Origin: a virus
Lineage: Duplodnaviria > Heunggongvirae > Uroviricota > Caudoviricetes
Length of the DNA: 4,278 bases
Virus record (IMG/VR): IMGVR_UViG_2703718871_000027
Strand: one strand, 5' to 3'
In this document: piece by piece, positions 1,858 to 3,638 of the stretch
Layout of the letters: every line of letters starts with the position of its first letter
How positions within the stretch are numbered: the stretch's first letter is position 1
Position numbers and translations under genes: made by a program
Notes under the pieces: model-generated
Told to the model about the DNA's origin: nothing
What the model saw: only the letters and a program-made list of their open reading frames with translations
Database searches by the model: none

Positions 1858-1973
1858 GAATAAACGCCATAATACTGAGGTATAACCATGATGAAATATA
1901 CGCCCGTACAGGGGCGGGGATTCGTTCGCCCTGGTGAATCTGAAAAGCCATGCTATAGGGTATTTTCAGGCAT

Positions 1974-2001
1974 AAAAAAAGCGGTCCCGATATGGAACCG
2001 C
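1974..2001 (-). terminator. Rho-independent terminator for the leftward A1-B1 operon (weaker in the + direction)
   Basis: GC-rich hairpin gcggtcc...ggaaccgc (1981-2001). On the minus strand it is followed directly by U7 (complement of the A7 run at 1974-1980). On the + strand it is followed by CTTTCT. Lies about 70 nt downstream of the B1 stop. Confidence 0.55.
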
Positions 2002-2069
2002 CTTTCTGAACAATTAACCCGCTGCGCCGTATGTGTCAACAATCATAAGCCCGAACATGATAACCGTGA

Positions 2070-2273
2070 TCAGGCTGGTGGGCAATTACCTTGCTTGTTG
2101 GGGCCGTATTGTGCTGCCATTTTCATCCGTTCAGAACGTGAATATTTTTTTAGAAACTCATCAAGGACAAAAGCGCATGGAGCGAATCTTTCTGATTCAT
2201 GCTCGAGCGCCATATTTTCGTGCTCTCTGTTCGTTTTTTGCGATGGTGTATTGGTTGATTCTTTATTGGTCAT
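2070..2273 (-). CDS. Hypothetical small protein B1 (67 aa), second gene of leftward cassette-1 operon
   Basis: ORF from ATG (complement of 2271-2273) to TGA (complement of 2070-2072), with a weak SD (AGGT) 7 nt upstream. Paralogous to B2: shared MTN N-terminus, F[AV]L[ED][DE]F..KY.R block and PP[AG] C-terminus. Same 57-nt spacing after the A gene in both cassettes. No recognisable domain. Confidence 0.4.
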   Translation of the reverse strand: MTNKESTNTPSQKTNREHENMALEHESERFAPCAFVLDEFLKKYSRSERMKMAAQYGPNKQGNCPPA

Positions 2274-2294
2274 TGTGTGTACCTGTAAAGCAAT

Positions 2295-2321
2295 GCGCCG
2301 TAGTACCTCACGCCACGGCGC
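2295..2321 (-). other. Conserved hairpin between A1 and B1 (possible partial terminator or RNA processing site)
   Basis: Stem gcgccgt (2295-2301) pairs with acggcgc (2315-2321), 13-nt loop. On the minus strand it is followed by AUUGCUUUA. Nearly identical to the copy at 3036-3062 (one loop difference). Confidence 0.4.
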
Positions 2322-2330
2322 TGATAGTAA

Positions 2331-2510
2331 TTATTCTGATTCTTTGGCCTTGCGGCGCTGGCGGCGTTTGATCTCGCCTTTTGCTGCCGTAACTAGAAAT
2401 CCGGCGGTACTTTCGCCAGGTTCTTTAAGTTGCTCAATATCGGTCATTACCTCATGCGGGATTCTGACCGTTGTCATTTGTGATTTTGCGTTCTTTGCAC
2501 CTGTTGCCAT
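2331..2510 (-). CDS. Ribbon-helix-helix (Arc/MetJ-like) DNA-binding protein A1, 59 aa; putative cassette-1 repressor
   Basis: ATG at complement of 2508-2510, preceded by SD AGGAGA (7-nt spacer); stop TAA at complement of 2331-2333. Sequence MATGAKNAKSQMTTVRIPHEVMTDIEQLKEPGESTAGFLVTAAKGEIKRRQRRKAKESE has the RHH layout: beta-strand (TTVRIP), helix A (HEVMTDIEQL), G-x-S turn (PGES), helix B, basic tail. 63 percent identical to A2 with no gaps. The longer 134-aa track ORF (2331..2735) is rejected because it would cross the promoter/operator region. Confidence 0.65.
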   Translation of the reverse strand: MATGAKNAKSQMTTVRIPHEVMTDIEQLKEPGESTAGFLVTAAKGEIKRRQRRKAKESE

Positions 2511-2530
2511 TTCTGGTTCTCCTGATAATC

Positions 2531-2623
2531 GGTGTATTTCAGTATACGCAAAAAAAAAGATAAAAAAAGTCTTGCGGTGTATTTCACCTGAATGTAGATT
2601 TAAAAATGAAGGTGAAATACACC
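2531..2623. promoter_or_regulatory. Cassette-1 divergent promoter/operator region with three GGTGTATTTCACC-type sites
   Basis: Sites at 2531-2542 (ggtgtatttcag), 2576-2588 (ggtgtatttcacc) and, inverted, 2611-2623 (ggtgaaatacacc). Candidate rightward promoter: -35 TTGCGG (2572-2577), 17-bp spacer, -10 TAGATT (2595-2600). Candidate leftward -10 TATACT (complement of 2541-2546), overlapping the first site. Operators overlap promoter elements as expected for repression and autoregulation. Confidence 0.5.
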
Positions 2624-2634
2624 CAAAACAACAA

Positions 2635-2666
2635 CGCCCCGCAGTGATGGGAACACATACGGGGCG
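2635..2666 (+). other. Cassette-1 rightward leader hairpin (7-bp GC stem) ahead of a conserved RBS and ORF start
   Basis: cgccccg (2635-2641) pairs with cggggcg (2660-2666), 18-nt loop. Followed by TCTAACCAA, SD GAGG (2686-2689) and ATG 2698. The same order of elements occurs in cassette 2 (hairpin 3385-3411, TCTAACCAA, GAGGAG, ATG 3444). Confidence 0.4.
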
Positions 2667-2747
2667 TCTAACCAAACCATTAATTGAGGTAACGATTATG
2701 GCTATAAAAGAGCATAGCTTACTCTTTATACACACACAAACGCCCCG

Positions 2748-2767
2748 GAAACGGAATAATCCGTTTC
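2748..2767 (-). terminator. Weak hairpin at the 3' end of the cassette-2 leftward operon (downstream of B2)
   Basis: gaaacgg (2748-2754) pairs with ccgtttc (2761-2767), loop aataat. On the minus strand it is followed by a G/U-rich stretch (CGGGGCGUUUGUGUGUGU), not a clean U-tract. On the + strand a displaced T-run (2777-2780) follows. Confidence 0.3.
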
Positions 2768-2786
2768 ATAGTTCGGTTTTGTGCAC

Positions 2787-3014
2787 TCATCCTGGCGGTC
2801 GGTTTTTGCCGGATTTAAGCCGCCGTGGGTATTTATCGACAAAATCTTCAAGGGCAAATTTTTCTGGTGGCACTAAGCGCGGCGCTGGTGGTGGTATTTT
2901 TGTTCTGGTTAGTTCTTCCTCAACTCTGGCGCAGGCTTCTGACTGCCTTTGCCGGATGATTTCATCATCTTGCGTTTGCGTGTCTTGTATTGGTGATAGT
3001 GTGTTGTTGGTCAT
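2787..3014 (-). CDS. Hypothetical small protein B2 (75 aa, Pro/charge-rich), second gene of leftward cassette-2 operon
   Basis: ATG at complement of 3012-3014 with SD AGGG 7 nt upstream; stop TGA at complement of 2787-2789. Paralog of B1 with the same gene order and 57-nt spacing after the A gene. No recognisable domain. Confidence 0.4.
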   Translation of the reverse strand: MTNNTLSPIQDTQTQDDEIIRQRQSEACARVEEELTRTKIPPPAPRLVPPEKFALEDFVDKYPRRLKSGKNRPPG

Positions 3015-3035
3015 GATACTGCCCTGTAAAGCAAT

Positions 3036-3062
3036 GCGCCGTAGTACCTCACACCACGGCGC
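3036..3062 (-). other. Conserved hairpin between A2 and B2 (copy of 2295-2321)
   Basis: Stem gcgccgt (3036-3042) pairs with acggcgc (3056-3062). Identical stem and near-identical loop to the cassette-1 copy. Confidence 0.4.
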
Positions 3063-3071
3063 TGATAGTGA

Positions 3072-3251
3072 TTATTCTGATTCTTTGGCCTTGCGACGCT
3101 GGCGGTATTCAACTTCCCGCTTTAATGCAGCTGTAACAAACTGCCCTGTACTTTCGCCGGGCATTTTTACCGCCTCAACATTGTTCATAACTTCATGTGG
3201 AACCCTTGCCGCAACTGTTTGTGATTTTGCGTTTACTGCTTTTGTCGCCAT
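3072..3251 (-). CDS. Ribbon-helix-helix (Arc/MetJ-like) DNA-binding protein A2, 59 aa; putative cassette-2 repressor
   Basis: ATG at complement of 3249-3251 with SD GAGGGG 8 nt upstream (an in-frame GTG 9 nt further upstream is possible but has no SD); stop TAA at complement of 3072-3074. Sequence MATKAVNAKSQTVAARVPHEVMNNVEAVKMPGESTGQFVTAALKREVEYRQRRKAKESE aligns with the Arc repressor fold pattern (beta-strand, P-x-E-V helix A, G-x-S turn, helix B). Paralog of A1. Confidence 0.65.
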   Translation of the reverse strand: MATKAVNAKSQTVAARVPHEVMNNVEAVKMPGESTGQFVTAALKREVEYRQRRKAKESE

Positions 3252-3280
3252 GTTGAGCACCCCTCATAAAAAACAAATGC

Positions 3281-3354
3281 AGTATGCAGGAAAAAAAACA
3301 AGTGTTCAACACTTGACGTGTTTAACACCTCGATTTAAATTGGTGTTCAACACC
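3281..3354. promoter_or_regulatory. Cassette-2 divergent promoter/operator region with three GTGTT-N-AACAC palindromes
   Basis: Palindromes at 3302-3312 (gtgttcaacac), 3318-3328 (gtgtttaacac) and 3342-3354 (ggtgttcaacacc). Rightward promoter: -35 TTGACG (3313-3318), 17-bp spacer, -10 TAAATT (3336-3341); the sites sit upstream of -35, in the spacer, and over the predicted start site. Leftward promoter: -35 TTGAAC (complement of 3304-3309, inside the first site), 17-bp spacer, -10 CATACT (complement of 3281-3286). Confidence 0.55.
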
Positions 3355-3384
3355 TTATTTAGGCAAGGTGTAGAAACGACGAAA

Positions 3385-3411
3385 CCCCGCACTGTAGGAG
3401 CAGTAACGGGG
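3385..3411 (+). other. Cassette-2 rightward leader hairpin (counterpart of 2635-2666)
   Basis: Outer stem ccccg (3385-3389) pairs with cgggg (3407-3411); inner stem actg (3391-3394) pairs with cagt (3401-3404); loop taggag. Followed by TCTAACCAA, SD GAGGAG (3433-3438) and ATG 3444. Confidence 0.4.
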
Positions 3412-3443
3412 CTTCTAACCAACAACGTAAACGAGGAGCCGTT

Positions 3444-3638
3444 ATGGTTGCCGTAAATCATATACCACACCTTGTACACACACAAACGGCCTTTGTGTGG
3501 CGTTTTCTGGCACTGAGTGCCGGAGAATCTCAAATAATCCACGTAACCGCCTGGACGGAACGCGAAGCACGTAACCGTTGCCCGTCAGGTTGTGTTGCTG
3601 TATTCGCCGCCCGTATTCGCCAGGGGGTAGGCTTATGA
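3444..3638 (+). CDS. Hypothetical protein (64 aa), first gene of rightward operon
   Basis: Strong SD GAGGAG with 5-nt spacer to ATG 3444. N-terminus M-[AV]-[IV]-x-x-H-x-x-x-[FL]-[IV]-H-T-Q-T is shared with the cassette-1 start at 2698. Stop TGA (3636-3638) overlaps the next ATG (ATGA), indicating translational coupling. Caveat: hairpins lie inside codons 12-27, so the 5' part may act as RNA. Confidence 0.45.
   Translation: MVAVNHIPHLVHTQTAFVWRFLALSAGESQIIHVTAWTEREARNRCPSGCVAVFAARIRQGVGL
3479..3508 (+). terminator. Terminator/attenuator-like hairpin inside the 5' end of ORF 3444-3638
   Basis: cacacaaa (3479-3486) pairs with tttgtgtg (3492-3499), loop cggcc, followed by GCGTTTTCT (3500-3508). 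A second hairpin follows immediately: ctggcac-tga-gtgccgg (3507-3523). Confidence 0.3.

Follow-up and report, generated by a model that had tools for sequence, protein, structure and literature searches.

The three repeats at positions 2531-2623 of the 4,278-nucleotide stretch of viral DNA analyzed here (hereafter, the window) are very probably DNA sites for a YlcI/YnfO-family repressor that would silence a phage-parasitic island. We consider it likely that these sites are the operators of the adjacent repressor gene A1, through which its product would block a rightward promoter and autoregulate its own synthesis, and that A1 and its sites constitute an exchangeable immunity module, the protein counterpart of the RNA immunity of satellite P4. 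The original prediction, in which these repeats were described as repressor operators that shut the rightward promoter and mediate autoregulation by A1, is supported by comparative evidence of several kinds, namely the predicted ribbon-helix-helix (RHH) fold of A1, the fixed offsets of the sites, their conservation, the concerted change of their cores, and natural swaps of the module. From these sequence patterns we infer the binding, repression, autoregulation and stoichiometry of A1 at the sites.

On its gene content, the window is read as the left end of a capsid-forming PICI of E. coli. It spans the left 4.3 kb of the element, and the remaining part was taken from its two closest relatives among complete E. 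coli genomes (L001 and L002), which are 96-98% identical to the window over the left end. Past the left end, these relatives contain genes for a RepA-type helicase, SSB, PerC, capsid, protease, portal, HNH and terminase proteins. Both thereby possess the set of features by which capsid-forming PICIs are recognized, including int, alpA, replication genes, their own capsid, portal, protease and terminase genes, a length of ~15 kb and a fixed att site. Phage records gave no match to the window. The window itself starts with a tyrosine integrase gene (1-1230, + strand), found by the ORF listing and family scans, and continues with a gene for AlpA, a homologue of P4 Vis (1605-1793, + strand; Pfam Phage_AlpA, E = 5e-18), which is an activator of PICI induction (PMC6092414). 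Next in the ORF listing and family scans are two cassettes in tandem, and after these come small ORFs and a DUF4222 gene.

Each cassette opens with two - strand genes, a small ORF and then a YlcI/YnfO-family gene of 59 aa, which are followed by an intergenic region of ~190 bp and an icd-like start. The family gene of the first cassette, A1 (2331-2510, - strand), encodes a predicted RHH repressor of 59 aa, and the second YlcI/YnfO repressor, A2 (3072-3251, - strand), is 61% identical to A1. Downstream of A1 in the leftward operon lies a small ORF of 67 aa (2070-2273, - strand), which matches phrog_21027 (labelled 'unknown function') and is annotated as WP_000182306 in relatives. On the rightward side, the second icd-like gene is the sole complete one: the Icd-like (P4 Kil-like) gene at 3444-3638 (+ strand), the first of the rightward operon, provides the only full match to NF033153 (64.9 bits). 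The cassette-1 intergenic region is followed by an icd-like 5' stub (MAIKEHSLLFIHTQT..., 2698-2745, + strand), which starts in the same way as the gene at 3444 and those in other loci, and which appears to be the remnant of the gene first driven by the cassette-1 rightward promoter.

Direct reading of the sequence and a repeat search bore out the expected arrangement of two direct copies and one inverted copy. The left operator O_L (GGTGTATTTCAGT, 2531-2543, + strand, core 2532-2542), detected by repeat and pattern searches, is the proposed autoregulatory site. The operator O_R1 (GGTGTATTTCACC, 2576-2588, + strand, core 2577-2587) is located between the rightward -35 and -10 elements, and O_R2 (GGTGTATTTCACC, 2611-2623, - strand, core 2612-2622) covers approximately +4 to +17 of the rightward transcript. 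The + strand at 2611-2623 reads GGTGAAATACACC, the exact reverse complement of GGTGTATTTCACC, and the perfect 13-bp inverted repeat claimed for the two right-hand copies is indeed present; the repeat search reports it as a 14-nt pair (2576-2589 / 2610-2623) that is 100% complementary with arms 20 nt apart, together with an 11-nt pair at 2531-2541 / 2613-2623. The left site agrees with GGTGTATTTCACC at 11 of 13 positions and exactly over GGTGTATTTCA. The description of all three sites as GGTG-N5-CACC holds for the two right-hand sites but not for the left one, which ends with CAGT because its last bases also serve the leftward -10 element (TATACT, the reverse complement of 2541-2546). The unit conserved across relatives is the 11-mer GTG-N5-CAC, not the 13-mer. 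These sites are pseudo-palindromes, in which the outer three pairs are always symmetric and the inner pairs are weakly symmetric (0.86 of 2 pairs vs 0.5 by chance). A pattern search allowing up to 3 mismatches produced 7 matches vs 1.23 expected (with both-strand matches of palindromic sites counted), a number reached in none of the 200 dinucleotide-preserving shuffles. Within the 14.7-kb island of the close relative L002, the site matches are confined to the counterpart of this intergenic region.

The cassette-1 promoters were read by eye and then checked by conservation. The candidate rightward -35 element TTGCGG (2572-2577, + strand) is found at the constant offset of 64 with an invariant TTG, and the candidate -10 element TAGATT (2595-2600, + strand) is located 17 nt from it. 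With a score of 7/12 this promoter is under the threshold of the consensus scan, and its -35 element differs from the TTGAAG, TTGAGG or TTGACG of relatives. In the window, where it faces the icd-like stub, it may be partly vestigial. The TTG and TAnnnT of the rightward promoter are kept in 14 A1-type relatives, in which the remaining spacer is 0.70 identical. The candidate leftward -10 element of A1, TATACT (2541-2546, - strand), has an identity of 0.99 in A1-type loci and takes the form of TATACT, TATAAT, TATGCT, TATAGT or TATTCT across loci; no recognizable -35 element was found for the leftward promoter. As predicted for the left copy, O_L abuts or overlaps this -10 element, and it spans from the edge of the element across the inferred leftward start. 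A ribosome site (AGGAG) is located between O_L and the ATG of A1.

A1 and A2 belong to the YlcI/YnfO family NF041551 of NCBIfam, with scores of 62.1 and 59.7 bits, respectively, vs a curated cutoff of 30, and to the PHROG phrog_949, labelled 'unknown function'. The AlphaFold (AF2) model of the A1 monomer, built with 19 homologues, has a pLDDT of 87 and a beta-alpha-alpha layout that comprises an extended segment (residues 11-18) and two helices, residues 19-28 and the long second one of residues 35-58, with a G-E-S turn between them. The turn G32-E33-S34 precedes helix 2, and all 19 diverse homologues keep its E33 and S34 unchanged. A1 in this model has the two hallmarks of RHH proteins, a beta-helix-helix fold of ~45 residues and a G-x-S/T/N turn that opens helix 2. 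Pfam searches of A1 and A2 gave chance-level matches only, with none of the curated RHH families (such as RHH_1, Arc, CopG and MetJ) at E <= 0.1; a sequence profile search of the PDB with A1 likewise returned chance matches and no relative, and Foldseek with the A1 model gave no informative match. A1 is predicted to belong to the RHH proteins at the level of fold only. RHH dimers insert a two-stranded sheet into the major groove at repeated short sites; repeated, short pseudo-palindromic sites are present in the window. The basic N-terminal arm of A1, MATGxKNxKS, is conserved, and variation in this arm is paralleled by the outer bases of the site. Our literature search found no functional study of the YlcI/YnfO family or of the repressor-site module. 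The E. coli K-12 protein YlcI from prophage DLP12 was rejected as a guide to the switch: it is only distantly related, lies in a different context without a comparable site triplet upstream, and is therefore uninformative on the PICI switch.

Using a profile of the YlcI/YnfO family, we identified 66 loci in species-representative genomes from many enterobacterial genera, and the layout described above is kept in these loci from Escherichia, Yersinia, Pectobacterium, Xenorhabdus, Serratia, Proteus and others. Relative to the repressor start codon, O_L is found at offset 24, the -35 element (TTGAnG) at 64, O_R1 at 69, and O_R2 at 91-94 or 104 in 60+ loci; for L026, L027, L028, L029, L035 and L068, to which automatic -35 anchoring was unsuited, the offsets were set by eye. 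In these loci, O_L is fused to a TAnnnT that resembles a -10 element of the opposite strand. Past O_R2 there is a conserved hairpin and then the icd-like ATG at an offset of ~190-196. The exceptions are L048, which has an unrelated upstream region, and L046, which lacks the third site. The prototype island EcCICFT073, an experimentally studied Gram-negative PICI, has a repressor starting with MATGTTNAKSQALKARVPHE and the sites GTGGGCCACAC at the standard offsets. Among the 14 A1-type loci, the identity per column is 0.96 for O_L, 0.95 for O_R1 and 0.97 for O_R2, vs 0.70-0.82 for the spacers, and 10 of the 13 positions of O_L are invariant.

Over all loci there are 23 distinct O_R2 11-mers and about 20 core types, and the cores change in concert within each locus: the N5 cores differ by 0.52 of 5 mismatches within a locus vs 3.43 between types, the latter being near random. 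The beta-strand sequence of the repressor corresponds one-to-one to the core, as illustrated by QMTTVRIPH with GTGTATTTCAC, KKLEARVPH with GTGGCTGACAC, QQLNARFPH with GTGCGATTCAC, and QTVAARVPH (A2) with GTGTTCAACAC. In L021, which has the strand QLFTVRVPH, the same A-to-G change is present at all three sites. In addition, repressors with an MTRDH or MASDS arm instead of MATGxKN have sites that end with CTG..CAG instead of GTG..CAC. Since the repressor gene adjoins its sites, part of this co-variation is linkage. The concerted change within a locus and the boundaries of natural swaps are the arguments that go beyond linkage.

Natural swaps of the module have their breakpoints at the equivalents of 2326 and 2624, and the exchangeable unit is therefore exactly the repressor gene with its operators. 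In many E. coli genomes, a 99.5% match to the window begins only at 2624. In one of them, L071, the equivalent of 2326-2624 is replaced by a gene for an Arc-like RHH protein, assigned to phrog_228, and its own palindrome TGTGTATATACACA, with both flanks near-identical to those of the window. In E. coli O157:H7 EC4115 (L070), whose capsid-forming island we take to be of the EcCIEDL933 type, the repressor slot holds an unannotated 57-aa Arc-like gene (3272-3445, - strand) with two CATGGTAATTACC palindromes, where RefSeq has, on the opposite strand, an 'incomplete Icd-like' pseudogene instead. The replicases encoded downstream of the module are either P4 alpha-type primase-helicases or RepA-type AAA proteins, and this mixture of types indicates that the module serves several satellite families.

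The second cassette of the window has its own set of sites, GTGTTCAACAC, GTGTTTAACAC and GTGTTCAACAC, identified by the repeat search at 3302-3312, 3318-3328 and 3343-3353 (+ strand). Their consensus, GTGTT(C/T)AACAC, is found nowhere else in the island. The consensus scan placed the cassette-2 rightward promoter at TTGACG (3313-3318) and TAAATT (3336-3341, + strand), separated by 17 nt. The layout of this cassette differs from that of the first one: the site at 3302-3312 is just upstream of the -35 element, where it overlaps a possible leftward -35 element (TTGAAC) and lies away from the leftward start, and the standard O_L position has no site. Similarity to cassette 1 or cassette 2 is found in about one quarter to one third of complete E. 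coli genomes. In the window, the cassette-1 rightward promoter faces the icd-like stub and then the convergent A2 operon. If not vestigial, it might interfere with A2 and supply transcripts to the operon downstream.

Both cassettes are embedded in a long open frame of 522 codons on the + strand (1888-3456), revealed by the ORF listing, that looks like a counterpart of the eta ORF of P4 (8168-8812). On the strand opposite the repressor genes, it spans the two cassettes with their operator regions and stops 13 nt into icd. Neither Pfam nor PHROGs yielded a match to this ORF. From the repressor stop codon to the icd ATG, the icd frame is stop-free in 30 of 42 loci; the other two frames have on average 8 stops. 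One antisense frame is stop-free in all 53 distinct repressor genes, vs 22.6 +/- 3.1 expected from synonymous-codon randomization (500 trials, maximum 31). Its coordinates show that this frame shares wobble positions with the repressor frame, and it clearly exemplifies selection acting on a single DNA stretch through both of its strands. In NCBI annotations around the YlcI gene, pieces of the frame appear as a BRO-N fragment and as an N-terminally extended Icd-like protein. Residues 54-93 of the eta-like product of EcCICFT073 (L074, 5752-7053, + strand) weakly resemble Ant/Bro anti-repressors (E = 6.5e-5), in agreement with the 'Bro zone' described in the literature for this region of PICIs.

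In P4-type immunity regions, a Rho-dependent terminator is suppressed by translation of eta. The gene order in P4 is vis (the alpA homologue), eta and kil, with the isrK, C4 and a1b1 RNAs situated between vis and kil, inside eta; the latter holds a constitutive early promoter along with the immunity RNAs, and the Icd-like kil is in frame at its end. As summarized in PMC10111431 (citing Forti et al. 1999), early transcripts are terminated under immunity, and late ones, initiated upstream, are translated over eta and read through. The gene order and logic are alike in the PICI, with the upstream AlpA/Vis homologue, the long frame that holds an internal early promoter and an immunity determinant, the Kil/Icd-like gene (after cassette 1, only the icd stub) and then the replication genes, and the replicases downstream of YlcI/YnfO modules include those of the P4 alpha type. 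The immunity determinant itself is different. In P4 it is an RNA (C4/CI with isrK/seqA targets, acting by premature termination), whereas an Rfam search of the window at E <= 1, which finds C4, isrK and a1b1 in P4, detected none of the three and nothing but a sub-threshold BSnc120 match at 1381-1462. In place of such an RNA, the window contains an antisense gene for a protein repressor inside the eta-like frame and three DNA operators. A further difference is that the frame ends 13 nt inside icd in the window, whereas P4 eta is fused to kil. In our reading, the YlcI/YnfO module does with a protein what the immunity region of satellite P4 does with an RNA.

The assignment of the sites to A1 has to be weighed against other potential binders, such as a nucleoid protein of the host, a factor from a helper phage, AlpA, the Icd-like protein or the small ORF product. 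The alpA gene, 800 bp away, encodes a DNA-binding activator (PMC6092414), and PHROGs labels the Icd-like families as 'transcriptional repressor'. Nevertheless, identical copies of AlpA, the Icd-like protein and the small ORF product occur beside entirely different site sets: AlpA WP_000953271 and the small ORF product WP_000182306 accompany either the A1 module or an Arc-like module, and the Icd-like protein WP_000226782 accompanies either the A2 or the Arc-like module. None of the three tracks the sites, and only the RHH gene changes together with them; for a host factor, ~20 different cores would be needless. We regard binding by any of these factors as highly improbable. Even less credible is that the inverted repeat 2576-2589 / 2610-2623 acts as a structure, be it a cruciform, an RNA hairpin or a terminator. 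Its arms are perfectly complementary, and the scan flags 2624-2610 (- strand) as a weak terminator-like hairpin, but the left arm is upstream of the inferred rightward start and therefore absent from the rightward RNA, and the third copy at 2531 has no partner. Furthermore, the right-hand site is direct in some lineages and lies between 22 and 35 bp from O_R1, and it is the identity of the 11-mer, not the pairing, that is kept. The flips in orientation of O_R2 and the differing O_R1-O_R2 distance between lineages of one type argue for independent protein sites and against a structural inverted repeat.

The strongest competing explanation accepts the sites as real but considers cassette 1 a recombination relic, with A2 and its own sites in cassette 2 as the working switch. 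The ORF that follows cassette 1 is icd-like for ~16 codons only and then joins the 3' flank of cassette 2, the -35 element TTGCGG departs from the TTGAAG or TTGACG of relatives, and tandem cassettes are limited to one E. coli lineage (~14 records), being found in none of the 66 diverse loci. On the other hand, A1 is an intact gene, both of its right-hand sites are perfect copies, the eta-like frame is open through both cassettes over its 522 codons, and intact alternative modules fill the same slot in other strains, which suggests that this first slot is in use. Transcripts running rightward from cassette 1 would be antisense to A2 and continue to icd, and could still matter. Taken with this evidence, a relic appears unlikely, and we favor the reading of the three sites as functional operators of A1.

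On this operator reading, dimers or higher oligomers of A1 would bind the 11-bp pseudo-palindrome GTG-TATTT-CAC. Occupation of O_R1, between the -35 and -10 elements, and of O_R2, at +4 to +17, would block the rightward early promoter, which is expected to drive the Icd/Kil-like and replication genes of a PICI, capsid-forming PICI or P4-like element. Occupation of the presumably weaker O_L over the leftward -10 element and start would limit A1 synthesis. The A1 gene and its three sites (2326-2624) would thus form a self-contained immunity module that exists in ~20 specificities and is recombined between satellites. The eta-like region would give a second, probably repressor-insensitive, expression route from the alpA promoter; we infer that transcripts from this promoter bypass the repressor, as late P4 transcripts bypass immunity, and collide with repressor transcription.

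A broader proposal is possible but tentative, and we lean slightly against it in its entirety. In Gram-negative PICIs, capsid-forming PICIs and many P4-like satellites, the missing master repressor may be encoded by YlcI/YnfO-type and Arc-type RHH modules, which would replace the RNA immunity of P4. The repressor gene would lie antisense in a selected stop-free eta-like frame, and AlpA-driven transcripts translated through this frame would evade repression and collide head-on with the repressor gene, which would explain why AlpA alone induces these islands. In the window, two specificities would act in series, and either release could open the replication operon.

The mechanism proposed for A1 is ordinary, an RHH repressor acting at divergent promoters; its role and arrangement are unreported. 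In the immI region of phage P22, the small RHH repressors Arc and Mnt act at the divergent promoters Pant and Pmnt through short symmetric operators, and one of these promoters makes the repressor. The window resembles immI in having a small, predicted RHH repressor and short symmetric operators over back-to-back divergent promoters, and Arc-like proteins fill the same slot in sister islands. However, A1 has no detectable sequence relationship to Arc or Mnt (the Pfam family Arc is unmatched), there are three sites per switch, the controlled gene is Icd/Kil-like and not an antirepressor, and the element is a satellite and not a phage. In lambdoid phages, the repressor and its operators move as an exchangeable cassette with sharp boundaries, giving rise to many immunity types; in contrast to these, the repressor of the window is of the RHH and not the HTH type, the module is only ~300 bp long, and its repressor gene shares its DNA with a reading frame of the opposite strand. 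The RHH copy-number and partition repressors of plasmids (CopG, omega and ParD-type antitoxins) offer a parallel in their cooperative binding to repeated direct or inverted short sites and in their autoregulation, and differ in genetic context and controlled functions; A1 also has the conserved basic N-terminal arm. In the Gram-positive PICIs (SaPIs), a divergent master repressor, Stl/Rpr, between the integrase and replication sides keeps the island silent (PMC6092414), but Stl proteins are larger, have another fold, and are inactivated by binding helper-phage proteins.

Published work on Gram-negative PICIs names AlpA as the activator and says that a repressor has yet to be identified, and no repressor is mentioned in the capsid-forming PICI preprint. 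The YlcI/YnfO module is a candidate for the missing repressor of Gram-negative PICIs, and provides a concrete suggestion for what keeps these islands silent. The uncharacterized YlcI/YnfO family thereby gains a putative function. The collection of ~20 natural repressor-operator pairs can be used in studies of RHH specificity or as orthogonal genetic parts. More generally, the layout of P4 immunity can apparently run on protein instead of RNA.

The 5' leader of the rightward transcript contains a conserved hairpin (2634-2667, + strand), followed by TCTAACCA (2667-2674), which is near-invariant across loci. Its counterpart in cassette 2 is the hairpin at 3382-3414 with a tail to 3421 (+ strand), likewise between the operators and the icd-like start. 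In 57 sequences, compensatory changes were observed in 9 of the 12 pairs; 89% of the cells are paired vs 28-46% with the partner slid, and none of the 500 shuffles reached the observed values. The folding z-score is -3.26. This test was based on a hand-written structure, as RNAalifold on a MAFFT alignment recovered only 4 pairs because of register errors in the leader alignment. No Rfam family matches the hairpin, and it is not a C4/CI RNA. Candidate roles include transcript stability, processing, and Rho loading on the C-rich tail. Immediately downstream, at 2675-2700 and also in L003-L068, a short stem GTTA-N7-TAAC noticed by eye encloses the icd-like Shine-Dalgarno sequence and changes in a compensatory way between loci (GTAA/TTAC, ATTA/TAAT).

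Several minor features were observed elsewhere in the window. The small ORFs at 2070-2273 and 2787-3014 (- strand; 67 and 75 aa) are each co-transcribed with the repressor of their cassette, share a C-terminal motif (ERFAPCAF..EFLKKY / EKFALEDFVDKY), and show no co-variation with the sites. Between each repressor gene and its downstream small ORF there is a conserved hairpin with a 12-bp stem (GCGCCGTGG..CTACGGCGC; 2295-2321 and 3036-3062, - strand), which is terminator-like by the scan but without a T run, and which belongs to an 82%-identical repeat (2263-2387 / 3004-3128). Finally, a perfect 12-bp hairpin formed by AAAGGCATAAAA and TTTTATGCCTTT (1417-1445, + strand) is located between int and alpA, inside the sub-threshold BSnc120 match mentioned above (27 bits vs a gathering score of 114), and may be the int terminator.
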